A stretch of 64,000 nt of DNA from Candidatus Oleimmundimicrobium sp. (GCF_030651595.1 NZ_JAUSCH010000004.1:74026-138025), one strand, 5' to 3'. Counted from the stretch's first letter, positions 4,217-46,043 are shown. Program-made: numbers and translations. The notes: generated from the sequence alone by a model not told the origin.

Positions 4217-5101
4217 TTACAAAACTTCGAGACTTACGTAACACAGACCTCTGCTTGGAGAATAAATTTTTGAAAAAGCTGTCTTCGATAAATCAATAAC
4301 CCTGCCCCGCGCATATGGACCTCTGTCAATTATTTTTACGGTTACTTGCTGGCCGTTTAAAAGATTTGTAACTCTTACCATTGTTCCTTTGGGAAGAGTT
4401 TTATGGGCAGCAGTTAATCCTGGAATATTATACCAGCTTGCCCAGCCCTTTTCGCAATTTTTTGTAGAATTTACGGGTTTTTCCAAGATTGGCACACTTT
4501 TTGGTGGTTTAATATATGTTTTTAAGTTTGAAAGAGCTATCTTTTCTTCGTTTAGTTCTTTCTTTAACTTTAGTTTCAGTTCGTTGGTTTGGGTCACCAA
4601 TTTTTCCTGTTTTTCATAATTTTCTTGCAGTTTACTTAATTGTAATTGAATTTCTGATTTTGAAAGTTGGAATTCTTTTATTAGTTTAGCGTCTTTTTTT
4701 GAGATATTAATTAAGGCATTAAGAGTAAAAAAGAAGTCGTGAACATTATTGTTATTAAGAAGAGTCATTGCCGGTAAAAAATCATTTTGTTTGTAAAGGA
4801 TTACAATTCTTGCACTTAGTCCATCTACTGATTTATTAAGATCACCCTCAGCATCGTTAAGACGGGTTTCAGTTTCAACCATTTCATTTTGAGATTTTAT
4901 AAGATATAACATTGCTTCGTTGTATTTTTTTACGGTTTTGTCCAGTTGTCCTTCAATTTTTTTTGTATCAAGTTTTAATTTTTTAGTTTCTTCATTTTGA
5001 ACTGCTAAAATTGTTGTCGGGGTTAAGCTTAAAATAATAATTAAAATAGTTGCCGAATAAAAAACTTTGGCTGGAAAATTTTTTGAGGAAAGTAACTTCA
5101 A
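4217..5101 (-). CDS. secreted coiled-coil protein with C-terminal RlpA-like/3D (double-psi beta-barrel) domain
   Basis: N-terminal hydrophobic signal/TM segment, a long coiled-coil region, and a C-terminal CEKGWASWY...GTMVRVTNL..VTVKIIDRGPY segment typical of the RlpA/3D DPBB fold. Confidence 0.6.
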   Translation of the reverse strand: MKLLSSKNFPAKVFYSATILIIILSLTPTTILAVQNEETKKLKLDTKKIEGQLDKTVKKYNEAMLYLIKSQNEMVETETRLNDAEGDLNKSVDGLSARIVILYKQNDFLPAMTLLNNNNVHDFFFTLNALINISKKDAKLIKEFQLSKSEIQLQLSKLQENYEKQEKLVTQTNELKLKLKKELNEEKIALSNLKTYIKPPKSVPILEKPVNSTKNCEKGWASWYNIPGLTAAHKTLPKGTMVRVTNLLNGQQVTVKIIDRGPYARGRVIDLSKTAFSKIYSPSRGLCYVSLEVL

Positions 5102-5168
5102 ATTAGTCTCACCCCTTGAATATCATAGGGCACAAATTTAAGAAAAATTATAGCATAGATGATAAGAT

Positions 5169-7679
5169 TTGGAAGAATTGTTAAATGGTATAGATTTAAA
5201 AAATTTTATTTATGATTGCGTAGAGGTTAAATTGTCTAAAAAAATTGCTCAAATAATCATCGATATCCCTGTTAAAAATGTAGATCGTCCCTTCGAGTAT
5301 TCAGTACCATCAAACATCGAGGGAAATATTAATATCGGCTCCTCGGTATTGGTTTCTTTTGGGTCACGCCTGCAGTTAGGTTATGTTGTCGGTTTTCTTG
5401 AAAAACCCACTGTAAAATATTTAAACCCAATTCTCGATTTGATAGAGAAAGAACCTATCTTTGATAAAAATATGATAAATTTGTGCCGTTGGATTTCGGA
5501 ACATTATTTATCGACTTTAAGTGAGTCCTTAAAACTTATTTTTCCTCCAGGAAGACTTAGACGGTTGCAGCAAGTTTTAATTTTGCAAGATGAGGTGGGA
5601 AAAAAATTACCCACGGAACGTCAAAAAGAGTTTGTAAGTTTTCTCGAAAAAATGGGAGGAGAGGTTCCTCTTAATAAAATTCGAAAACGTTACCCGGTTG
5701 GCTTATCAAGTTTAATTGGGAATCTTGAAAAGAATGGTTTTTTAAAGAAAAAATATGTAATTTCTAAGCCCCGAATTAATACAAAAATAGAAAGGTATGC
5801 TGCTTTAAATCCTTCAATAGATGATCCGAAAAATTTAATTGCTTCCTTAGGCACAAGAGCACCTAAACAAAAAAAACTGATAGCGCTTCTTTTAGAAGAA
5901 AAAAGCATGCCGGTACATAAACTTCTTTCAATTACAGGTAGCTCGCATCAGTCTTTAAAATCTCTAACAAAAAAGAAAATTGTGGTCCTGAGCGAAAAAC
6001 CGACATTCAGAGAGTCAGATTTCTTTTATCCCGAAAATTTTTCTCTTCCCATTCAATTGACCAACGAGCAAACTAAAGCGCTTAAGCGAGTAAAAGAGGC
6101 CATTAATAAAGAGATGTATCATGTTCAACTTTTACAAGGGGTAACCGGTAGCGGAAAGACTGAAATCTATTTGCAAGCTATAGTTGAAGTTTTAAATAAA
6201 GACAAGACGGCCATAGTTCTTGTTCCCGAAATTGCCCTAACTCCGCAAACGGTTCATAGGTTTCGCTCTCGTTTCGGTGAAGCAGTTGCGGTTCTTCATA
6301 GTGGCCTTGGACTTGGTGAACGGTTTGATCAATGGGAAAAAGTTAAACACGGGAAATGCAACATTGTTGTTGGTGCACGCTCTGCTCTTTTTGCACCTTT
6401 AAAAAATTTAGGGCTTATTGCTATCGATGAAGAGCACGAAATTAGCTATAAGCAAAATAGTAATCCTCGTTACCATGCAAGAGATGTCGCTAAAAAATTG
6501 GCCAAATTAAACAATGCTTTATTAATCTTAGGGAGTGCTACACCAAGCATAGAAAGCAAACATGAAGCCGAACAAAAAAACTACGAACTTCTTAGATTAA
6601 CTAAAAGAGTTAAAGATATAAAATTTCCACAAGTTGAGATAGTCGATATGAGAGAGGAGAGCTCAAAGGAAAATTTTGGGATATTTAGCCCAACGCTCCT
6701 TACCGAAATGGAGAAATGCATATCTTCTAAGAAAAAAATGATACTTTTTTTAAATCGACGCGGTTATGCTAACTTTATTTTGTGTAGAGATTGCGGCTTT
6801 GTTTTAAAGTGCAAACGATGCGATGTTTCATTAGTCTATCATTTTAATGACAAAACAATGCGTTGCCATCACTGTGGTTATACTGTTTATTTTTCAAAGC
6901 TATGTCCTAATTGCAAGGGGCATCGAATAGGGTATTTTGGTTTAGGAACACAACGCGTTGAGAGCGAAATTAAAAAAATTTTCCCTGATGTGCCTTTAAT
7001 CCGCATGGATGCGGATACGACTACGAAAAGAGATTCCCACCGTAAAAAATTAATCGAGTTTGAAAACTTAGATGTGGGAATACTTTTGGGAACCCAGATG
7101 ATTGCAAAAGGGTTAGATTTTCCGGATGTAACGTTAGTTGGCGCAATAAACGCTGACACGGCTCTACATTTACCGGATTTTAGGGCGAGTGAGCGAACTT
7201 TTCAATTATTAATGCAATTGAGTGGCAGGGCAGGTCGAGGGGGATTTCCTAGTAAGGTAATCATACAGACCTACTGTCCTGATTCATACGCAATTTCTGC
7301 AATAGAAAAGTACACATATGATGAATTTTTTAAAGAAGAAATAAAAACAAGAGACGAGCTTAGCTATCCTCCATTCTCTCAATTAATTAACATTTTGTTC
7401 TTGGGTAAAGACGAAAAAAAAGTAATTGAAGAAGCTTATTCATTTAGCGATACTTTCACCAAAACCGGTGAAAAAAAATGGTTGAAGAGTTCTTTGGGTC
7501 CGGTGCCGGCGCCACTTTCAAAAATTAAAAACAAATATCGCTGGCATATGATTTTAAAAACTACTAATTCTGTTGAGGCGGCCAATTTTTTAAGAGAAAA
7601 TTTAAAAACTTTGATTTCAAAGAAATATGCAAAAGATGTTAATATATTAATAGACGTAGATCCGATTTGGACGTTATAG
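5169..7679 (+). CDS. priA: primosomal protein N' (replication restart helicase PriA)
   Basis: Walker A GVTGSGKTE, DEEH box, Cys-rich zinc-binding region (CRDCG...CKRC...CHHCG...CPNC). An alternative TTG start near 5232 is possible. Confidence 0.9.
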   Translation: MEELLNGIDLKNFIYDCVEVKLSKKIAQIIIDIPVKNVDRPFEYSVPSNIEGNINIGSSVLVSFGSRLQLGYVVGFLEKPTVKYLNPILDLIEKEPIFDKNMINLCRWISEHYLSTLSESLKLIFPPGRLRRLQQVLILQDEVGKKLPTERQKEFVSFLEKMGGEVPLNKIRKRYPVGLSSLIGNLEKNGFLKKKYVISKPRINTKIERYAALNPSIDDPKNLIASLGTRAPKQKKLIALLLEEKSMPVHKLLSITGSSHQSLKSLTKKKIVVLSEKPTFRESDFFYPENFSLPIQLTNEQTKALKRVKEAINKEMYHVQLLQGVTGSGKTEIYLQAIVEVLNKDKTAIVLVPEIALTPQTVHRFRSRFGEAVAVLHSGLGLGERFDQWEKVKHGKCNIVVGARSALFAPLKNLGLIAIDEEHEISYKQNSNPRYHARDVAKKLAKLNNALLILGSATPSIESKHEAEQKNYELLRLTKRVKDIKFPQVEIVDMREESSKENFGIFSPTLLTEMEKCISSKKKMILFLNRRGYANFILCRDCGFVLKCKRCDVSLVYHFNDKTMRCHHCGYTVYFSKLCPNCKGHRIGYFGLGTQRVESEIKKIFPDVPLIRMDADTTTKRDSHRKKLIEFENLDVGILLGTQMIAKGLDFPDVTLVGAINADTALHLPDFRASERTFQLLMQLSGRAGRGGFPSKVIIQTYCPDSYAISAIEKYTYDEFFKEEIKTRDELSYPPFSQLINILFLGKDEKKVIEEAYSFSDTFTKTGEKKWLKSSLGPVPAPLSKIKNKYRWHMILKTTNSVEAANFLRENLKTLISKKYAKDVNILIDVDPIWTL

Positions 7680-15081: not shown

Positions 15082-15657
15082 ATGGTGAATGTGTCCCAAG
15101 ATGACAATTTAAAGCATATTGTTGAAGAATCAAAAAAGGATCCGGAAGCTTTTGTTAAAGTTTATGATTTGTTTTTTAATAAAATTTACGGCTATGTCTA
15201 CTATAAAGTGGGCAGTGTGGAGGACGCAGAAGATATAACGGAACAAGTTTTTTTAAAAGCTCTTGTGGCTATCGGGAAATTTAAATGGGAAGGCGCTTTT
15301 TTTTCATCATGGCTTTTTAAAATAGCGCACAATCAAATAGTTGATTATTTTAGAGCTCGAGCAAAAACAGTAAACAACAAAACAGTAAACAACATACCTG
15401 ACGAACAAATGGATAAAATTCCGGATAAAGGGGAGTGTTTAGAAAGGATAGTTGAAACAAAAATGTCGTTAAGTTATATACAAAACGAAATCCTTAAATT
15501 AACAAAAGAGCAGCAAGACGTGCTTATTTTAAAATTTTTAAGTGGTTTTTCCAATATGGAAATAGCTAAGTTTCTTAACAAGACAGAGGGAGCGGTAAAA
15601 GCCCTTCAACATAGAGCGTTAAACTCCTTAAGAAAAATTTTAAAGGAGAGATATTAA
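15082..15657 (+). CDS. RNA polymerase sigma factor, ECF (sigma-70 region 2 + region 4) family
   Basis: 191 aa with sigma-70 r2 and r4 regions and an HTH at the C-terminus. Its stop overlaps the start of the next gene (TAAATG). Confidence 0.8.
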   Translation: MVNVSQDDNLKHIVEESKKDPEAFVKVYDLFFNKIYGYVYYKVGSVEDAEDITEQVFLKALVAIGKFKWEGAFFSSWLFKIAHNQIVDYFRARAKTVNNKTVNNIPDEQMDKIPDKGECLERIVETKMSLSYIQNEILKLTKEQQDVLILKFLSGFSNMEIAKFLNKTEGAVKALQHRALNSLRKILKERY

Positions 15658-16611
15658 ATGAATCGGAAATTTGACGAGGCTTTAAATAATTGCATAAAGT
15701 TAATAAAAAACGGGGAAGAAGATATTGATGGATGTTTGGCAAAATATCCTAAATATAGTCAGAAATTAAAACCACTCCTCAGTACTTTTGTTGCTTTAAA
15801 AAATGTGCCAAAACCAAAATCATCGGCTCAATTTAAACAAACGGCTAGGTCAAGGTTATTAGAACAAGCAAAATTAATGAAAAGATCTTCTTTTTTCATT
15901 AATTTTGCTAAACCTAAGAAGTTTTCTTCAGCAATGCCAGTATTTCTTCAAGTGGCAGCTGCCATTCTTATCGTTGTCCTTTTAAGTGGGGGAACAGTTA
16001 TGGCGTCGGCAAGTAGTTTGCCCGGAGATTTGCTTTATCCTGTTAAAATTGCAACTGAGGAAGTTCAACTTTTTCTTACTTTCAACAAAACAGCCAAAGC
16101 TGAGTTGCACTTAAAATTTGCCGAAAAGCGTTTGAATGAAATCAAAGCTATTGATCAAGATGAAATTGATGTTAATCTCGACAACATTGTAAGCTCTATG
16201 ACTAAGCATTTAAATAAAGCTATGAATTTAACGAATGAGATGCAAGTTGAAGAAAGAGGGGAAGCACTCTTAAAAATATTGTATTTTATTCAACACGAGG
16301 AACCATTGTTGCAACAAGTTGCAAATAAAGTATCAAGCAAAGAAGGAAATGCTTTGAAAAATGCCATTAAGGCAACCTTAGAAGATAATTTTAACAATGA
16401 ACTTAGATTTAAAAACTCGAAAACATTAATTGAGATTGAAAAAGAAGAGAAAAAAGAAAAAGAATTTGGCGAAACTCAAATCGAGACAAAAGATAATTTA
16501 AAGAACGACCTGAGCGATGACAATAACGATGGCAGTAGCTCTTTTGATTTAGAACAAAAAGATGGTGCTAATGATGAAGATGATTTCGAGAAAAAAATTC
16601 AGAAAAGATAA
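15658..16611 (+). CDS. putative anti-sigma factor / membrane protein (single TM, acidic C-terminus)
   Basis: Translationally coupled to the ECF sigma gene. Cytoplasmic N-terminal ~100 aa, one TM helix (VFLQVAAAILIVVLLSGGTVMA), then an extracytoplasmic domain. Confidence 0.55.
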   Translation: MNRKFDEALNNCIKLIKNGEEDIDGCLAKYPKYSQKLKPLLSTFVALKNVPKPKSSAQFKQTARSRLLEQAKLMKRSSFFINFAKPKKFSSAMPVFLQVAAAILIVVLLSGGTVMASASSLPGDLLYPVKIATEEVQLFLTFNKTAKAELHLKFAEKRLNEIKAIDQDEIDVNLDNIVSSMTKHLNKAMNLTNEMQVEERGEALLKILYFIQHEEPLLQQVANKVSSKEGNALKNAIKATLEDNFNNELRFKNSKTLIEIEKEEKKEKEFGETQIETKDNLKNDLSDDNNDGSSSFDLEQKDGANDEDDFEKKIQKR

Positions 16612-17444: not shown

Positions 17445-19445
17445 GTGGATTTTAAAAACAAATTAATAGAACAAAAAGAATTTAACGCAATTCTTTCTAG
17501 TATTGCTGATGGAGTAATACTAACTGACCTTGAAGGAAGGGTTGTCCATTTAAGTCAGTCTGCTGAAAATATGTTAATGATTGAGGCAGATGAAGTTTTA
17601 GGAAAATGTATATCTATTTCTACTTTACTAGGGAAAGAAAGCCAAAGTGAAAAAGGTCTGGCTTTTTGTTGGGAAGAAAAGAACTGTAATGAAAAAATTT
17701 GTCCGGTTCACTCTAAAGACAACCCTCGTTGTTGGACAGTTTCAAATACCTGTCCTAATGGTGTTACACAAGGAACTTTTAGAGAGAAAATAAAACATTG
17801 CCAGACCTGCGAAATATTTAAACGAAATTCAAAAATACTTGAAGAACCAGCAGTAACAATGGTTAGTGAATTGGTAATAGATGGACCTCACAAAAAAATT
17901 CTTCAAATTAAAACAAATCCCGTTGTTGACGAGAGGGGAAATTTTCTTGGATTTGTAAGGACCTTGCACGATATTACGTTTCAACGAGAAATAAACACCA
18001 TGAAAGACGAATTTGTTTCAACAGTGTCACATGATTTTCGCATCCCATTAACCTCGATAAAAGGTTACGTTGACCTTATTCTCGATGGCGAAGCTGGAAA
18101 ATTTAATGATATGCAAAAAGAATTTCTGACAATTGTAAAACAAAACAGTGATCGCCTCATCAGTATGATTAATGATTTCTTGGATATCTCGAGAATCGAA
18201 TCTGGGAAGATGAATTTTGATATTAAACCCGAAAATATAAAATCAATGATTCATGACGTTGTTAGTACTTTTCAGAGATTTATTAACGAGAAAAAGATGG
18301 AAATTGAAATAAAAGTTCCTGATAAGTTGCCGAATATTTTAGCTGACCACGATCGAATAATTCAAGTTCTTAATAATTTAGTGAGTAACTCAATTAAATA
18401 TACTCCCCCTAATGGTAAGGTTGTAGTGGAAGTTTGTGAAAAAGGAAATTACATTGTTGTTTCAATTTCCGACACAGGAGTTGGAATTTCTACTAAAGAC
18501 CAAGAGAAATTGTTCACAAAGTTTTATCGAGTAGATAGCTCGCTTATTCAAGAAACCGGCGGGAGCGGTCTGGGTTTATCAATTTGTAAAACTATAATTG
18601 AGCGGCATGGCGGAAAAATTTGGGTAGAAAGTAAAGAGGAGAAGGGCAGCAAGTTTAGTTTTTCGCTGCCAGCTTTAAAGGTAGAAGTCAAACCAGAACT
18701 AATAAAACAAGGGATGAGGATTCTTGTTGTTGATGATGAACCCGATATTTCTAAATTGATTCAACTTTATCTTGAAAAAGAAGGATATTACGTGATTAAG
18801 GCTTTTGATGGAGAAGAAGCCGTTAAAATGGCCAGAAAAGAACATCCGGACCTTATTACGTTAGATATTATGATGGGCAAGATAAGTGGGTTTGACGTTT
18901 TAAAAGAACTAAAAGAAGATGCTCATACGGCTTCTATTCCCGTAATTGTTTTATCGGTTATTTTAGATGAAAAAAAAGGATATCGGTTGGGTGCATCCGA
19001 CTATCTTCCTAAGTCGGTTGATAGAAAAAAACTTATTGAAAGTGTTAATCGATTAGTTGGCAGAACTAATCAGCCTCAAAACGAAAAAATGGTTTTAGTT
19101 GTCGATGACGATAAAGATATTTCAAGTTTTATTGAATTCAACCTTAAGAAAGCAGGTTTTAAGGTAATTAAAGCTTTTAATGGAGTTAAAGCCCTTGATA
19201 TTTTAAAGAAAGAAAAGCCCGATCTTATGCTTCTTGATCTCAGAATGCCTGAAATGGATGGCTATGAGGTAATGGAAAGAATAAAGAACAATAAAAAGTT
19301 ATCTAAGATTCCTGTCATTATTATGACCGCTTACGATTTAGATCGCGAAAAAACCGAAATTTTAAATTTGGCTATTGATAAAATTTCAAAACCTTTTTCC
19401 ATGAGAATGCTCACGTCAAAAATTAAAGAAACTTTAAAAAAATGA
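17445..19445 (+). CDS. hybrid sensor histidine kinase: PAS with Cys-rich insert, HisKA, HATPase_c, REC, REC
   Basis: GTG start after a GGGAG RBS. HisKA H-box STVSHDFRIPLT, HATPase N/G boxes, and two receiver domains (ILVVDDEPD...LDIMM; VLVVDDDKD...LDLRMP). The Cys-rich block lies at aa ~75-124. Confidence 0.85.
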   Translation: MDFKNKLIEQKEFNAILSSIADGVILTDLEGRVVHLSQSAENMLMIEADEVLGKCISISTLLGKESQSEKGLAFCWEEKNCNEKICPVHSKDNPRCWTVSNTCPNGVTQGTFREKIKHCQTCEIFKRNSKILEEPAVTMVSELVIDGPHKKILQIKTNPVVDERGNFLGFVRTLHDITFQREINTMKDEFVSTVSHDFRIPLTSIKGYVDLILDGEAGKFNDMQKEFLTIVKQNSDRLISMINDFLDISRIESGKMNFDIKPENIKSMIHDVVSTFQRFINEKKMEIEIKVPDKLPNILADHDRIIQVLNNLVSNSIKYTPPNGKVVVEVCEKGNYIVVSISDTGVGISTKDQEKLFTKFYRVDSSLIQETGGSGLGLSICKTIIERHGGKIWVESKEEKGSKFSFSLPALKVEVKPELIKQGMRILVVDDEPDISKLIQLYLEKEGYYVIKAFDGEEAVKMARKEHPDLITLDIMMGKISGFDVLKELKEDAHTASIPVIVLSVILDEKKGYRLGASDYLPKSVDRKKLIESVNRLVGRTNQPQNEKMVLVVDDDKDISSFIEFNLKKAGFKVIKAFNGVKALDILKKEKPDLMLLDLRMPEMDGYEVMERIKNNKKLSKIPVIIMTAYDLDREKTEILNLAIDKISKPFSMRMLTSKIKETLKK

Positions 19446-19461
19446 GAAGCTGGTAAAGACA

Positions 19462-19868
19462 ATGGATAAAAAAAGATATTAGTTGTTGATGATGATTTAA
19501 ACATATGTCGCTTAATTAAATTTAAATTAACTAATAAAGGTTATGAGTTAATGGAAGCGCATAATGGAGAGGACGCATTAATAAAAGCGGTTCTTTTTAA
19601 ACCGGACTTAATTTTGCTTGACGTGATGATGCCCAAAATGAACGGCTGGGAAGTTTATGGAAAATTAAAAGAACACGCGGAATTAAAAGAAATTCCAGTA
19701 ATAATGGTAACAGCAGTAAGCCAGTTAGATGAGTCATTTGAAAATATTAATGCGCAAAACATTAAAGGATATATAAAAAAGCCCTTTGATTTTTCAGAAC
19801 TGATAAAAACAATAGAAAAGAACTTAGGACAAGCAGTTGACGGTAGTCCATTCGGCAGCCTAAGTTAG
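19462..19868 (+). pseudogene. CheY-like single-domain response regulator, interrupted by a homopolymer (A7) frameshift
   Basis: ATG at 19462 reads MDKK then hits a stop. With one extra A in the A7 run (19468-19474) the frame becomes MDKKKILVVDDDLNICR... continuous with ORF 19551..19868 (REC domain, LLDVMMP, KPFD). Confidence 0.6.
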
Positions 19869-19892
19869 AACAGGTAAAACAGGAGAGACTGC

Positions 19893-21914
19893 ATGAAGAA
19901 AGTTGATAACAATATAGCCGAAGCTATCCTTCTAAGTACGGCAGATGGATTAATTGCTTTTGATAAAGATGACAAAATAATTTTATTTAATCCTGTAGCT
20001 GAGCAAATATTGGGGGTTAAACAAGAAAAAGTTATCAACAAACCAATTAAAATGTCGGGTTTACTGGGAATAAAGAGATTAGATAAAGCTGAGGAACCAT
20101 TGAAGTGTTGGGAGTATTTTGGATGCAAACATAAAAAATGCTCAGTATGCAATAAAAAAATTACCCGTTGTTGGCTTTATTCAAACACTTTTTGCAAAGG
20201 CACCTTTAAGGGAACATTTAAAGATAAGATTGATGAATGCAGAGAATGCGAGTTTTTCAAGTTAAATTCAAAAAGAGTAGAAGAAACAGGTATAGCTTCT
20301 GTCGAACAAGCTATCACTAATGGGTCTAACCGTAAAATTATACAAATCAAAACCAGTTCGATTTTAAATAAAAACAATGAATTTTTAGGTTATGTTAAAT
20401 CAATACGCGACATAACTGCTGAGAAAGAAATTTCTCAGCTGAAAAACGAGTTTATTTCCACTGTTTCACACGAACTTCGAACGCCACTTACCTCAATTAA
20501 AGGTTATATTGATCTTCTTTTAGAGCAAGAGGCCGGCAATGTTAATCAAACACAGCGAGAGTTTCTGTCTATAGTGAAGCAAAACAATGATCGTCTTGTT
20601 GTTTTAATCAATGATTTGCTGGATATTTCAAAAATCGAATCGGGTCGAGTACACCTTAGAATTAAAAGTTATAATTTAGCTGAAATTTTAGCAGAAGTTG
20701 TTAATACTTTTAAAACACTTGCAAATCAAAAAAAACAAATTATAAAACTCCGTATTTCAAAAAATTTACCTAAAATTGCCGCAGACAGAGATAAGATGTC
20801 GCAGGTTATGGCCAATCTCATAAGTAATGCAATAAAGTATACGCCAACTGGCGGAACCATAAAGATTGGAACAAAGCGCAACGACTCCAGGGTTGAAATC
20901 TATGTAACCGATACAGGAATTGGAGTATCTCCAGAAGATCAAAAAAATCTTTTTACAAAGTTTTTTCGCGTTGACAATTCACTTACTCGTGAAATTGGAG
21001 GAACCGGTTTAGGGTTATCTATTTGCAAGAAAATAATTGAGTTACATGGCGGGAAAATTTGGGTAGATAGCGAACTAGGCAAGGGGAGCACCTTTACTTT
21101 ATCTATACCTATTTATGAAATAATTGAAGAAGAAAAAACTAAGAGAAACTTAAGTAAATTCCTTAAAAAAGGATTTAGGAAGGGTAAAAAAATTCTTGTG
21201 GTAGACGATGAACCTGAAATTGCAATGTTGCTTCAAATTTATCTCGAAAAAGAGGGGTATAGCGTAATAAAAGCATTTAGCGGTGAAGAAGCGCTGGAAG
21301 TTGCAAGACAAGAAAGCCCGGATTTAATTACTCTAGACATAATGATGGATAAAATGGATGGATTTGAAGTGCTCCGAGAGTTAAAAGATAAGTCGGACAC
21401 GGCCAATATTCCTGTTATTGTTCTTTCTATTGTTTCCGATGAGTACCGGGGGATAAAACTTGGAGCAGTAGATTATCTTACAAAACCAATTAATATTGAA
21501 AAGTTATCTAGGACAGTGAGCAATGCCCTTCGGTCTTCTGCCGGAGCTTCAAAAAAGGTTTTAATAGTAGATGACGATAAAGACCTTGTTGGGTTAGTTC
21601 AAGAAATACTTAACAATCAGGGTTATAATACAGTTGTTGCTTATGATGGCTTAGAAGGGATTATTGCCGCAAAAAAGGAACAGCCCGATCTCATTCTTTT
21701 GGATATAAAAATGCCCCAGTTAAATGGTTATGAGGTTGTGCAGAAACTTAAAAAAGCAAAGGAAACCTCCAAAATCCCAATTGTCGTTATGACAGCTTAC
21801 GAATTTGACAAAACTAAGACTGAAATATTAAGCTTGATAGAACAGCAAATTTCAAAACCATTTTCAGTCGATATGATATATTCCAAAATTAAAGAAGTAT
21901 TAAAAGAGGTATAA
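19893..21914 (+). CDS. hybrid sensor histidine kinase paralog: PAS with Cys-rich insert, HisKA, HATPase_c, REC, REC
   Basis: Same architecture as 17445..19445, with roughly half the residues identical by eye. Cys-rich block at aa ~72-122, H-box STVSHELRTPLT, two REC domains. Confidence 0.85.
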   Translation: MKKVDNNIAEAILLSTADGLIAFDKDDKIILFNPVAEQILGVKQEKVINKPIKMSGLLGIKRLDKAEEPLKCWEYFGCKHKKCSVCNKKITRCWLYSNTFCKGTFKGTFKDKIDECRECEFFKLNSKRVEETGIASVEQAITNGSNRKIIQIKTSSILNKNNEFLGYVKSIRDITAEKEISQLKNEFISTVSHELRTPLTSIKGYIDLLLEQEAGNVNQTQREFLSIVKQNNDRLVVLINDLLDISKIESGRVHLRIKSYNLAEILAEVVNTFKTLANQKKQIIKLRISKNLPKIAADRDKMSQVMANLISNAIKYTPTGGTIKIGTKRNDSRVEIYVTDTGIGVSPEDQKNLFTKFFRVDNSLTREIGGTGLGLSICKKIIELHGGKIWVDSELGKGSTFTLSIPIYEIIEEEKTKRNLSKFLKKGFRKGKKILVVDDEPEIAMLLQIYLEKEGYSVIKAFSGEEALEVARQESPDLITLDIMMDKMDGFEVLRELKDKSDTANIPVIVLSIVSDEYRGIKLGAVDYLTKPINIEKLSRTVSNALRSSAGASKKVLIVDDDKDLVGLVQEILNNQGYNTVVAYDGLEGIIAAKKEQPDLILLDIKMPQLNGYEVVQKLKKAKETSKIPIVVMTAYEFDKTKTEILSLIEQQISKPFSVDMIYSKIKEVLKEV

Positions 21915-21933: not shown

Positions 21934-22308
21934 ATGTCAAAAGGTAAAATTTTAGTTGTCGACGACGAACCAGACATCTCTAATTTAATTAAATTTACCT
22001 TAGAGAGAAGGGGATATAAGATTATCTTAGCCAAAAATGGGCAGGATGCAATGAATATAGCAAAAAAAGAACAACCTAAATTAATTTTACTTGATGTGAT
22101 AATGCCAGTTATCAATGGATATGAAGTATGCAGGTTACTAAAAGAATGTGCTGAAACAAAAGATATTCCGGTTATTATGTTATCGGGGAAAACTCAGAAA
22201 ACAGAGATAGAACATGGATTAAAGGTGGGGGCTAATAATTATATTTGCAAGCCTTTTAGCCCTAAAGAATTTGCTAATACCATTGAAGAAATTTTTTCAA
22301 AAAATTAA
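21934..22308 (+). CDS. single-domain CheY-like response regulator
   Basis: 124 aa made of a REC domain only (ILVVDDEPD, LLDVIMP, KPF). No output domain. Confidence 0.85.
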   Translation: MSKGKILVVDDEPDISNLIKFTLERRGYKIILAKNGQDAMNIAKKEQPKLILLDVIMPVINGYEVCRLLKECAETKDIPVIMLSGKTQKTEIEHGLKVGANNYICKPFSPKEFANTIEEIFSKN

Positions 22309-23183: not shown

Positions 23184-23363
23184 AAATATAACGTATGCCT
23201 AAATGTAGAAGTGAAAAAGTGAAAACAAGTGATATATAAAAAGATGGCTTAGTTTACATAAGATATATTATCAGGCCTAAAATTAAACATTAAAATACTT
23301 CTCTTGGTCTCCCCCTGTGGCAAATATGTCAACTAAACCCAGTAAAAGAATTATTACTGAAAA

Positions 23364-23385
23364 TTTTATAGGGTTAAATTAATAA
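23364..23385. repeat. 22-bp direct repeat copy 2 (TTTTATAGGGTTAAATTAATAA)
   Basis: Exact match to 22914..22935. A 14-bp core GGTTAAATTAATAA recurs at 25132..25145. Confidence 0.8.
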
Positions 23386-23552
23386 TTAAATTAAAGTTTT
23401 CAAATACCCGTGCTGTTTTAGTATTACTAATCTCTCTCTTTTTTTTCTGATATCACTTTTATTTGTAAAATTGCAAACTCTCTCTTTTTATTACAAATAA
23501 GCTAGCGTGTTTAGTGTATTTAGCTGGTTAGACGCTCTGAGAGGCCGTTTAA

Positions 23553-23580
23553 GCGGTTTTTATTGCATTAACAATACTTG
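23553..23580 (+). terminator. candidate rho-independent terminator in convergent spacer
   Basis: Hairpin CCGTTtaAGCGG followed by TTTTTATT. On the minus strand the same hairpin has no U-tract after it, so it acts only in the plus direction. Confidence 0.4.
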
Positions 23581-23613
23581 GGCTATACGGGTAACTCTTA
23601 ATTTTCTAAACTA

Positions 23614-43736: not shown

Positions 43737-45467
43737 CTAGTCTTCGTGCACGCTGTCTAAATCTTCGTTGGAAACATCAAACACCGTGTTGTGAGGCGGC
43801 AGCTTCTCCTTGGTCATAAAGAGAGGTAATCTATCATGTGCCTTGGTAAAACCAACCCTCTTATTGAAGTCCCGCTCCGTCTGAAGCACTTTTTTGCCCA
43901 GTTTCGTTACATCATCACCTGTAAGTTTCAAACCATACATAGCATTCAGCATATCAACTACAGCTGGATTAGCACGTTCATTTGTGAGGGTTGCAAAAGC
44001 AACAAAGAGACATAGCCCTGTGCAGTCAGTCGCGGCAGTTGCAACCTGAAAGGCCTTGGAAAGATCCGCTTTTCCTTTTGGATCCAGCGGGTCAACTTTC
44101 CCGCCACACCCGGCAATCTCCATAGCTATAACGTAACCGGCAGTGTGGTCAGCGCCCATCGGAGATGTGGCGTAAGTAACTCCTGTGCCCTTCGTGGCCC
44201 TTGGGTCGTAAGCAGGCATTCCCTGTCCTTTAACCTGGGGCACACGTTCAATGCCATAGACTTTTCCGAGGCAAGTACAACCGCTCCCCACAATTTTTCC
44301 TAAGGGAGATCCTTTTTCGGCCTCTTTAAGAAGGTTGATAGCGCCTTCCCCGTCGCCGAAAGAAATTATTCCGGCCTCCATGGCCACTCCGATTGTGTCA
44401 CCCATCTCTATGGTATCCAACCCGATGTCATCACAGAGTCTGTTTAGTCGGGCAACGATGTCGAGGTCACCAATACCACAGTTGGCCCCCAAGGCCCAGA
44501 TACTCTCGTACTCAAAACCACCGGTTATTTCAGTTCCATCCTCAAGTTTGTAAACGTTGGAGCAGTCAATTATGCAACCCGGTGAACAAGGATGGGTGGG
44601 ATTTCCTTTTCTCTTAAGGATGATCTCCCTCATCGTTTCCCCACTGATATTATTTGCTTCCTCAAAACGGCCGCTGGAGAAATTTTTTGTAGGAAGCGCT
44701 CCGGCTTCGTTTAGGATATTGATGAGAATAGCCGTTCCGTAAAGAGGTAGCCCTTCACCGCTAATTGAGTCTTTTTTAAGGGTATCGGCAAAAACCTTGG
44801 CTGCCTTGTTAAAGGAATCTTTATCTTTAATGTTGACTCCTGGCGCGTCTGTTCCGTCAACCACAATGGCTTTTATCCCCTTGGAGCCCATTACCGCACC
44901 AAGCCCTCCTCTTCCAGCTTGCCTGGTTGGAACGCCATCAATATCAGTAACCGAAATATTGGCCGCGGCCATCTTGGCTTCACCAGCCGGGCCTATGCAA
45001 GCAATAGCTACTTTCTCGCCATATTTTGCCCGCAGCTTTTCAACGGCGTTATATACCAGTTCGTTCTTTAATTCGTTAGACGGTTTAAGAGTAGCGCCAT
45101 CTTTATTGACCAATAAAACATAAGATTCGCCATCTTTCGCCTTGCCTTCGATAATTATCCCCGCAATCTGTAATTTGGCGAGTCTTACGCCCAGCGTTCC
45201 TCCAACGTTTGATTCCTTAATCCCTCCGGTAAGAGGACTTTTTGCCCCAAAAGAAACCCTACCCGAATTCGGGCAATTTGTCCCTCCCAATAAACCAGGG
45301 GCAATCACTAACTTGTTTTCTTCACCCAACGGATGACATAATGGATTTACTTCTGCCGCCACTACGGCTGAAGTAAATCCTCGTCCGCCCAGTCCATCAT
45401 ATTCCTTGGAAACATCCTCCAATTTTACTTCTTTTTTTGTTAGATTAACCCTTATTATTTTTGACAT
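43737..45467 (-). CDS. aor: tungsten-containing aldehyde:ferredoxin oxidoreductase (AOR family)
   Basis: 576 aa with the AOR N-terminal domain and 4Fe-4S / pterin-ligand Cys motifs (CSPGCIIDC...CxxxGxC region). Confidence 0.8.
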   Translation of the reverse strand: MSKIIRVNLTKKEVKLEDVSKEYDGLGGRGFTSAVVAAEVNPLCHPLGEENKLVIAPGLLGGTNCPNSGRVSFGAKSPLTGGIKESNVGGTLGVRLAKLQIAGIIIEGKAKDGESYVLLVNKDGATLKPSNELKNELVYNAVEKLRAKYGEKVAIACIGPAGEAKMAAANISVTDIDGVPTRQAGRGGLGAVMGSKGIKAIVVDGTDAPGVNIKDKDSFNKAAKVFADTLKKDSISGEGLPLYGTAILINILNEAGALPTKNFSSGRFEEANNISGETMREIILKRKGNPTHPCSPGCIIDCSNVYKLEDGTEITGGFEYESIWALGANCGIGDLDIVARLNRLCDDIGLDTIEMGDTIGVAMEAGIISFGDGEGAINLLKEAEKGSPLGKIVGSGCTCLGKVYGIERVPQVKGQGMPAYDPRATKGTGVTYATSPMGADHTAGYVIAMEIAGCGGKVDPLDPKGKADLSKAFQVATAATDCTGLCLFVAFATLTNERANPAVVDMLNAMYGLKLTGDDVTKLGKKVLQTERDFNKRVGFTKAHDRLPLFMTKEKLPPHNTVFDVSNEDLDSVHED

Positions 45468-45746
45468 GCCATGCCTCCTTTTTCCTAATAAACCACCTAA
45501 AAAAATTTGTTCTAAAATTCAAATTATCTAAGACTAACCACTTTCCTAAAAAACAAAACTGAACTCGGAGCACTTAGTTTAATTTTAATCCTTTCATATT
45601 GAAAAATATTCTTAATAGATTTATCGGCACAACCCAATAAATTCTTTATTTTTTTAAAGAAAGCGAAAATGTTTCCCATAAAACAAACTATTACCGCAAA
45701 CAAGTCAGACAACATACCTTCTTAAGCAAACAAAAAACTGAAGTTA

Positions 45747-46043
45747 TCAATATCTTACCTGAAATTCTTCAAACTCACCCTTATAACCTTCCTTCTTAAC
45801 CTTAACATTAGTTACCTTAGCTGAGGGCGGACCTTGATATACCAAATCAATAACTTTTTTAACATCTTTTTCTTCACCTTCCAAAATCATTTTAACCGAG
45901 CCGTCAGACGCGTTCTTTACCCAACCAATTACTTTATTGTTTTCGGCAATCTCCTTGGTATATGAACGAAAATACACTCCTTGAACCTTTCCGGTAACTT
46001 TTACATAAACACAAACTTTTGCCATATTTTCACCTTGAAACAT
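45747..46043 (-). CDS. acyP: acylphosphatase
   Basis: VxVxGxVQGVxFR and GWVKNxxDGSV motifs. Confidence 0.85.
   Translation of the reverse strand: MFQGENMAKVCVYVKVTGKVQGVYFRSYTKEIAENNKVIGWVKNASDGSVKMILEGEEKDVKKVIDLVYQGPPSAKVTNVKVKKEGYKGEFEEFQVRY

Follow-up and report, generated by a model that had tools for sequence, protein, structure and literature searches.

What does a cysteine-rich block do in the middle of a PAS sensor domain? The question is raised by two paralogous hybrid histidine kinases, here called K1 and K2, that are encoded in a 64,000-nucleotide window (the whole stretch of DNA that was analysed) of Candidatus Oleimmundimicrobium sp. (GCF_030651595.1, NZ_JAUSCH010000004.1:74026-138025). 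An initial annotation made from the sequence alone had located both kinases, placed their cysteine blocks at approximately 17667..17820 and 20106..20262, and suggested an uncharacterised Fe-S or Zn insert. In the analysis described here, the block was assigned to the catalogued two-CW family, and it is read, with a probability of roughly one half, as a cytoplasmic metal-cluster input domain, probably iron-sulfur (Fe-S) and possibly zinc, that would steer the kinase through the PAS sheet.

17445..19445, + strand: K1, predicted soluble hybrid histidine kinase (666 amino acids, GTG start; open reading frame (ORF) listing and Pfam)
19893..21914, + strand: K2, predicted soluble hybrid histidine kinase, paralogous to K1 and alike in domain order (673 amino acids; ORF listing and Pfam)

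Both ORFs are exactly those first annotated. In Pfam terms the order of domains in each protein is PAS (N-terminal half), insert, PAS (C-terminal half), HisKA, HATPase_c and two receivers (two Response_reg matches each). With HisKA (68 bits in K1 and 76 bits in K2), HATPase_c (112 and 115 bits) and receivers on one polypeptide, K1 and K2 are hybrid histidine kinases, 48% identical to each other over their full length. No transmembrane segment was found in either protein (maximum 19-residue hydropathy 1.22), and because neither has a hydrophobic segment, both are predicted to be soluble and cytoplasmic.

Identity of the insert

The insert of K2 matches the NCBIfam model NF045718, named "two-CW domain", with 37.2 bits (E 2.8e-9, profile positions 2-78 of 80), above the curated cutoff of 35. 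A hidden Markov model (HMM) of the family built here scores 72.3 bits with K1 and 68.8 bits with K2, and NF045718 was matched by every family member tested. When columns were compared across about 160 domains, both CW dipeptides and the seven cysteines of K1 and K2 fell in register with the family, the signature of which spans about 55 residues and reads CWE-x3-C-x4-CP[AV]Y-x6-RCW-x3-GT-x-C-x4-QG-x-F-x2-K-x3-C-x2-C-[ED]-V-[FY]-K. The name two-CW is already in use in NCBI annotation (P0176). By these profile comparisons, the insert is identified as a two-CW domain, and K1 and K2 as new members of a catalogued family.

The initial annotation could name no sensor module for the block and had allowed that a match to a defined cysteine-rich family would remove its novelty; as regards the family, the NCBIfam match does so. 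The HMM search that it recommended thus found a name in NCBIfam, whereas Pfam searched at E ≤ 1 returned no family for the inserts of K1 and K2. The name of NF045718 is descriptive and carries no function. Typical members of the model are small standalone proteins or have two-CW at their N-terminus, in contrast to the copies in K1 and K2, which are nested in PAS.

Position of the insert within the PAS fold

The cysteine motif is C75-x5-C81-x4-C86-x2-H89-x6-C96-W-x5-C103-x15-C119-x2-C122 in K1 and C72-x5-C78-x4-C83-x2-C86-x6-C93-W-x6-C101-x14-C116-x2-C119 in K2. The spacing given initially was right overall, but its element "C-W-x6/7-C" was off by one unless the tryptophan is counted in the spacer. 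The blocks begin where they had been placed, with C75 of K1 at 17667 and C72 of K2 at 20106. Clustering of the cysteines is pronounced: eight of the nine in K2 lie within 48 of its 673 residues, seven of the ten in K1 lie in the block, and with the exception of C55 of K1, every cysteine of the sensor region is within the inserted domain. The sensor regions are divided as follows.

17478..17630, + strand: K1 PAS N-terminal half (A-beta to E-alpha), approximately residues 12-62 (Pfam PAS and alignment to the K2 model)
17661..17828, + strand: K1 two-CW domain, residues 73-128, with Cys75, 81, 86, 96, 103, 119 and 122, Trp76 and Trp97 (NF045718 and family HMM)
17859..17978, + strand: K1 PAS C-terminal half (G, H and I strands), approximately residues 139-178 (alignment to K2 strands 136-173)
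19920..20066, + strand: K2 PAS N-terminal half, residues 10-58 (Pfam PAS and AlphaFold secondary structure)
20097..20267, + strand: K2 two-CW domain, residues 69-125, with Cys72, 78, 83, 93, 101, 116 and 119, Trp73 and Trp94, and the extra Cys86 (NF045718 and family HMM)
20298..20459, + strand: K2 PAS C-terminal half (strands 136-141, 149-158 and 164-173) and J-alpha linker helix (175-189) into the DHp (dimerisation and histidine phosphotransfer) domain

The Pfam PAS family (PF00989) is matched with 35.3 bits by K1 and 24.6 bits by K2, both above the gathering score of 22.6, but the matches are partial: residues 12-57 of K1 correspond to positions 2-47 of the 113-position profile, and the match of K2 to positions 4-47. 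Only the N-terminal part of the profile is matched because the fold is split by the insert. Residues 1-190 of K2 were modelled with AlphaFold2 from a 70-sequence alignment, and K1 was placed by its colinear alignment with K2. In the model (mean predicted local distance difference test score (pLDDT) 86, insert 91-94), strands 19-24 and 28-32 and helices 34-40, 44-47 and 54-58 precede the insert; the insert itself consists of a helix (72-76), a turn (93-95), a hairpin (100-105) and two further helices (109-116 and 120-129); and strands 136-141, 149-158 and 164-173 follow, leading into a long helix (175-189). The split domain has the five-stranded antiparallel sheet and flanking helices of a PAS fold and resembles solved PAS domains. 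The order of the modelled elements is that of a canonical PAS domain (A/B-beta and C/D/E-alpha before the insert, G/H/I-beta and J-alpha after it), with the insert predicted to stand at the position of F-alpha, in agreement with the original proposal that the block is spliced between two halves of a PAS fold.

The same layout of PAS N-terminal half, two-CW and PAS C-terminal half is found again in a distinct and more distant group of proteins (P0017, P0122 and P0144), where it is preceded by HAMP. In a Nitrospirota metagenome-assembled genome (MAG), the protein encoded at 4789-6414 of locus L012 has a two-CW domain at residues 403-456 within a GAF match that is stretched over residues 299-491, and for this reason two-CW appears to be nestable in both GAF and PAS scaffolds.

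Seven conserved cysteines

Six cysteines of the two-CW domain (family columns 3, 9, 14, 24, 47 and 50) are invariant in the approximately 160 domains compared, and a seventh (Cys5 in the order along the domain, column 32) occurs in about 95% of them. The column-32 cysteine has moved by one residue (giving "TCP") in K1, in all three K1 orthologs and in P0010, P0104 and P0139, and it is replaced by serine in P0022, P0129 and the second copy of P0007, which has a new cysteine three residues before Cys6. The domains of L013 and L014 likewise have serine at column 32 and a new cysteine in the next loop. From this pattern of displacement, the seventh cysteine seems to behave as a ligand on a flexible loop. 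Also nearly invariant are both tryptophans, Pro15, Thr30, Gln37-Gly38, Phe40 and Lys43.

The initial annotation had counted eight potential ligands, the eighth being a position occupied by histidine in K1 (H89) and cysteine in K2 (C86), a swap that it took for the signature of a metal ligand. Family-wide, however, this column holds tyrosine in 69% of domains, histidine in 12% and phenylalanine in 6%, and it is variable among the orthologs: the histidine of K1 corresponds to tyrosine in all three, and the cysteine of K2 to tyrosine in two and histidine in one. His89 of K1 and Cys86 of K2 are best read as lineage-specific substitutions in the "CPAY" motif, so that the conserved set of putative ligands comprises seven cysteines, not eight. 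The same column explains why the proposed search for the motif recovers little when applied strictly: as a regular expression it matches only 16 of 150 search hits, since it requires histidine or cysteine where most members have tyrosine.

K2 departs from its relatives in having "CSVC" in place of "CPAY" (S84 at 20142-20144, C86 at 20148-20150), a change by which proline and tyrosine have been lost and a CxxC pair gained, whereas the K2 orthologs retain CPAY or CPMH. The change may be neutral, or it may be a species-specific alteration of the putative metal site.

Two-CW as an input module

An exhaustive HMMER search with a profile of the two inserts, run against 1.84 billion representatives of clusters at 50% identity, returned 920 proteins at E ≤ 1e-3, of which 93 reach E ≤ 1e-10. 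The survey set consisted of 150 hits, from which P0003 and P0006 were excluded as cysteine-repeat false positives with partial, repeated matches to the two-insert profile that had skewed the first conservation percentages, leaving 158 domains in 148 proteins. Of these domains, 73 are N-terminal, 12 are C-terminal and 24 are in proteins of 150 amino acids or fewer; ten proteins have two copies. Pfam partners, tallied for 104 members, are HisKA (34), PAS (about 31), GGDEF (17), receiver (13), HAMP (11), GAF (8), MCPsignal (5), HD-GYP (4) and STAS (2). A second search, with a profile of 70 family sequences, gave 702 matches, mostly standalone proteins of 60-120 amino acids with no Pfam domain. 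A word-indexed search with residues 1-185 of K2 returned no match despite the existence of the ortholog P0002 (62-71% identical), which makes it a sensitivity miss.

At the minimal end of the range are proteins that contain only two-CW joined through a linker to GGDEF (L008, L009 and L011) or to HisKA/HATPase (L005 and L007). No other input domain is present in these proteins, so two-CW is the only possible input. The numerous standalone members, together with a confident model of the domain by itself (pLDDT 85.6), argue that the fold is autonomous, and the survey as a whole characterises two-CW, at the level of sequence, as an autonomous input module of signal transduction proteins.

In 30 of 142 domains, a sequence resembling HAMP helix AS2 ("[IL]GE.FNNMM..L") occurs within 40 residues after two-CW, and in 18 domains "F.NP.L" precedes it. 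Members with the AS2-like helix include P0001, P0004, P0007, P0008 and P0010; the group looks like a distinct subfamily that is wired into a signalling helix.

Comparison with known domains

Searches of the Protein Data Bank (PDB) by sequence gave only noise (E ≥ 0.27 with a profile of two sequences and E ≥ 2 with a profile of 79), and no fold relative of the two-CW model was found there. When 70 family members were scanned against Pfam at E ≤ 1, neither Fer4 nor zf-CW nor any other real family was found. The sole recurrent Pfam match was DUF2769 (PF10967), which appeared below threshold in seven of the 70 sequences (best E 0.014), K1 and K2 not among them. DUF2769 is likewise an uncharacterised family of small, cysteine-rich proteins of anaerobes and archaea, and it is possible, judging by these matches, that it is a distant relative of two-CW.

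The resemblance of two-CW to zf-CW (PF07496), a eukaryotic zinc finger, is limited to the name and the presence of cysteine and tryptophan; the number and spacing of cysteines are different. The clostridial-type 2x[4Fe-4S] ferredoxins of the Fer4 clan share with two-CW a length of about 55 residues, a high density of cysteines and a Cys-Pro element, but their CxxCxxCxxxCP motif is absent from two-CW, and neither a Fer4 hit in Pfam at E ≤ 1 nor a match to their fold was found.

The nearest functional analogy is NreB of Staphylococcus, a PAS kinase with an oxygen-labile [4Fe-4S] cluster on four cysteines of the PAS core that are spaced C-x2-C-x11-C-x2-C. Like NreB, K1 and K2 are cytoplasmic PAS histidine kinases with a cysteine-rich sensor and a proposed metal-sulfur cofactor. 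Unlike those of NreB, their seven cysteines belong to a separate domain at F-alpha with no sequence relationship to NreB, and the NreB spacing is present in neither K1 nor K2, just as the initial annotation had said. The heme-PAS domains of FixL, DosP and Aer2 and the flavin-binding LOV domains hold an organic cofactor in an unbroken PAS fold, whereas in K1 and K2 a whole domain replaces F-alpha.

Orthologs and genomic context

When one genome for each GTDB species was scanned with patterns drawn from a three-sequence alignment and biased to sequences like K1 and K2, 14 two-CW loci were identified. The three nearest (57-62% identity in the sensor region) belong to uncultured Actinomycetota, including Candidatus Oleimmundimicrobium americanum (class Ca. 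Aquicultoria). All three genomes keep the tandem pair of kinases and all seven cysteines, which bears out the conservation in orthologs on which the initial annotation had made its proposal depend. K1 and its counterpart in L003 show 79% identity, and for K2 and its counterpart in L001 the value is 71%; set against the 48% identity of K1 and K2, these values indicate that the duplication is old and that both copies have been retained. More distant two-CW domains are found in Nitrospirota (among them Thermodesulfovibrio and Ca. Magnetominusculus), Desulfobulbaceae, Desulfocapsaceae, Thermodesulfobacteriota, Cloacimonadota, Chloroflexi, a Bacillota MAG and the archaeon Ca. Methanoperedens, every one of them a lineage of anaerobe type.

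The gene order common to L001 and L003 is ribH, ECF (extracytoplasmic function) sigma factor, anti-sigma factor (DUF5667), zinc ribbon, K1, receiver, K2, receiver, SH3 protein and potassium channel. In the window, the genes that flank the kinases are the following.

15082-16611, upstream of the kinases and after ribBA and ribH: ECF-type sigma factor (Sigma70_r2 and r4) and DUF5667 anti-sigma-like protein, in an order kept in L001 and L003
16751-17077, - strand: Zn_ribbon_8 protein (FmdB-type, MPIY.YKC..CG; Pfam), divergent neighbour of K1
19462..19868, + strand: CheY-like single-domain receiver between the kinases, frameshifted (translation from the ATG at 19462 gives MDKKRY and then stop; KKILVVDDD... 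follows in the +1 frame as far as 19868)
21934..22308, + strand: CheY-like single-domain receiver downstream of K2 (Response_reg 100.4 bits, full length), conserved in position in L001 and L003

The frameshift in the receiver gene between the kinases lies in a run of seven A at 19468-19474. The listed ORF matches only positions 27-110 of the Response_reg profile, but the +1 frame at 19462-19868 encodes a complete receiver domain, and the corresponding genes of L001 and L003 are intact (137 and 149 amino acids). The frameshift is either a homopolymer sequencing error, a recent pseudogene mutation or a slippage site.

A Zn_ribbon_8 gene also adjoins a two-CW gene divergently at L001 (2925-3206), L003 (2848-3195), L015 (4556-4774) and L016 (4574-4798), the last two being Actinomycetota-type genomes in which the two-CW genes are standalone. 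As a general functional partner of two-CW, the Zn_ribbon_8 protein was rejected on account of its absence from the 11 other loci (L004-L014); the adjacency is probably lineage synteny.

Elsewhere in the window, the + strand carries the genes between about 5.2 kb and 23.2 kb and the - strand those beyond 23.6 kb; the two groups converge at approximately 23200-23600, where the GC skew also changes sign (the cumulative skew has its maximum near 24 kb). This looks like a switch point of the replication-terminus type. The G+C content is 0.44 at 44001-46000, compared with about 0.35 elsewhere, and coincides with an ORF of 576 amino acids at 43737..45467 on the - strand.

Proposed mechanism and alternatives

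If two-CW is a metal-cluster input domain, its cysteines would hold one or two metal centres, the likeliest arrangement being an Fe-S cluster on four cysteines and a second site on three. The redox, occupancy or ligand state of these centres would answer to oxygen, redox potential or nitric oxide, and the PAS beta-sheet and J-alpha helix would move when the cluster changes, since two-CW stands at the position in PAS that is taken by the heme cofactor in FixL and DosP and by flavin in LOV domains. This movement would switch autophosphorylation by the DHp and CA (catalytic and ATP-binding) domains, from which phosphoryl groups could pass to the two internal receivers and to the adjacent CheY-like receivers.

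Fe-S is favoured by the cytoplasmic location, the single CxxC, the Cys-Pro and Cys-Trp contexts of the cysteines, and the anaerobe-type distribution of the family. The predicted cytoplasmic location also argues against disulfides. Compared with what is generally known of ferredoxins and zinc fingers, the "C-x4-C-P" element and the single CxxC seem to fit Fe-S better than classical zinc knuckles. The Fe-S or Zn sensing function guessed at in the initial annotation is reasonable and remains the most plausible reading.

Several observations weigh against this reading. The match of K1 to NF045718 (34.1 bits, E 2.6e-8, profile positions 3-78 of 80) falls 0.9 bit under the cutoff of 35. Seven cysteines fit cleanly into neither one nor two standard four-cysteine sites. 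Neither an Hpt domain nor a DNA-binding response regulator was found in the locus. The confinement of two-CW to anaerobe-type lineages is no more than suggestive, because the taxonomic sample is small and pattern-biased and does not amount to a census. A full-text literature search found no paper on the two-CW domain.

The main rival is that two-CW binds zinc, whether as two Zn on seven thiolates with one bridging or as Zn(Cys)4 plus Zn(Cys)3X, and is either a thiol redox switch like Hsp33 and RsrA, in which oxidants would release zinc, unfold the insert and alter the PAS domain, or a rigid structural plug. The small size, scant regular secondary structure and very high cysteine content of two-CW are typical of zinc-stabilised folds, and the domain has one CxxC knuckle at the N-terminus of a helix (C116-x2-C119), a fifth cysteine that tolerates serine in three members, and no Fer4-type match in Pfam; moreover, other zinc modules such as CZB are present in some of the same proteins. 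However, zinc ribbons and treble clefs normally have two CxxC pairs and not one, an anaerobe-type distribution is not expected of a plain zinc module, and the Cys-Pro and Cys-Trp contexts appear to resemble environments that shield clusters. On balance, zinc binding of this kind is considered unlikely, but by no means negligible.

A weaker rival takes two-CW for a docking or dimerisation module, such that standalone two-CW proteins or the neighbouring zinc ribbon bind the kinase-borne copies. The great number of standalone members of 60-120 amino acids, the two tandem copies in some proteins and the divergent Zn_ribbon_8 genes in the window and at L001, L003, L015 and L016 would be understandable on this account; against it stand the loci L004-L014 without such a neighbour and the proteins in which two-CW accompanies GGDEF or HisKA with no other input domain. 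Invariant cysteines, too, are better explained by a cofactor than by an interface, and docking is regarded as improbable. The possibility that the cysteine block has no function and arose by chance, from low complexity or as an artefact of annotation can be dismissed, the false positives P0003 and P0006 of the two-sequence profile being a reason for caution only, in the face of E-values of 1e-8 to 1e-22 against curated and family models, 920 homologous representatives, cysteines that are invariant in orthologs of 57-79% identity, and a confident fold prediction.

Extended beyond the two kinases, the reading of two-CW as a metal-cluster input domain leads to a broader and more tentative proposal: two-CW would represent a hitherto unstudied kind of metal-cluster sensor whose fold has no counterpart in the PDB, with an Fe-S cluster and possibly a second metal site, plugged as an input into kinases, diguanylate cyclases, chemoreceptors and partner-switching proteins of anaerobic Bacteria and Archaea and nestable at the cofactor position of PAS or GAF domains, and the K1/K2 pair would have been retained with each kinase tuned to a different redox or oxidant threshold.

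Significance

The known bacterial Fe-S sensors are few (FNR, NreB, SoxR, IscR, NsrR, WhiB-like proteins and AirS), and each has been informative about the sensing of oxygen or oxidants. The two-CW family has already been catalogued, and the value of the present findings lies in characterising the domain, not in detecting it. Its standalone members (63-75 amino acids) and the 190-residue sensor of K2 are simple, well-defined constructs. The nested-in-PAS architecture of K1 and K2, which is also present in public genomes, appears informative in its own right. Two-CW is widespread (920 clusters), almost exclusively tied to signalling outputs and invisible to annotation based on Pfam, and its replacement of F-alpha in PAS, or its nesting in GAF, points to where and how the state of the domain may be transmitted.

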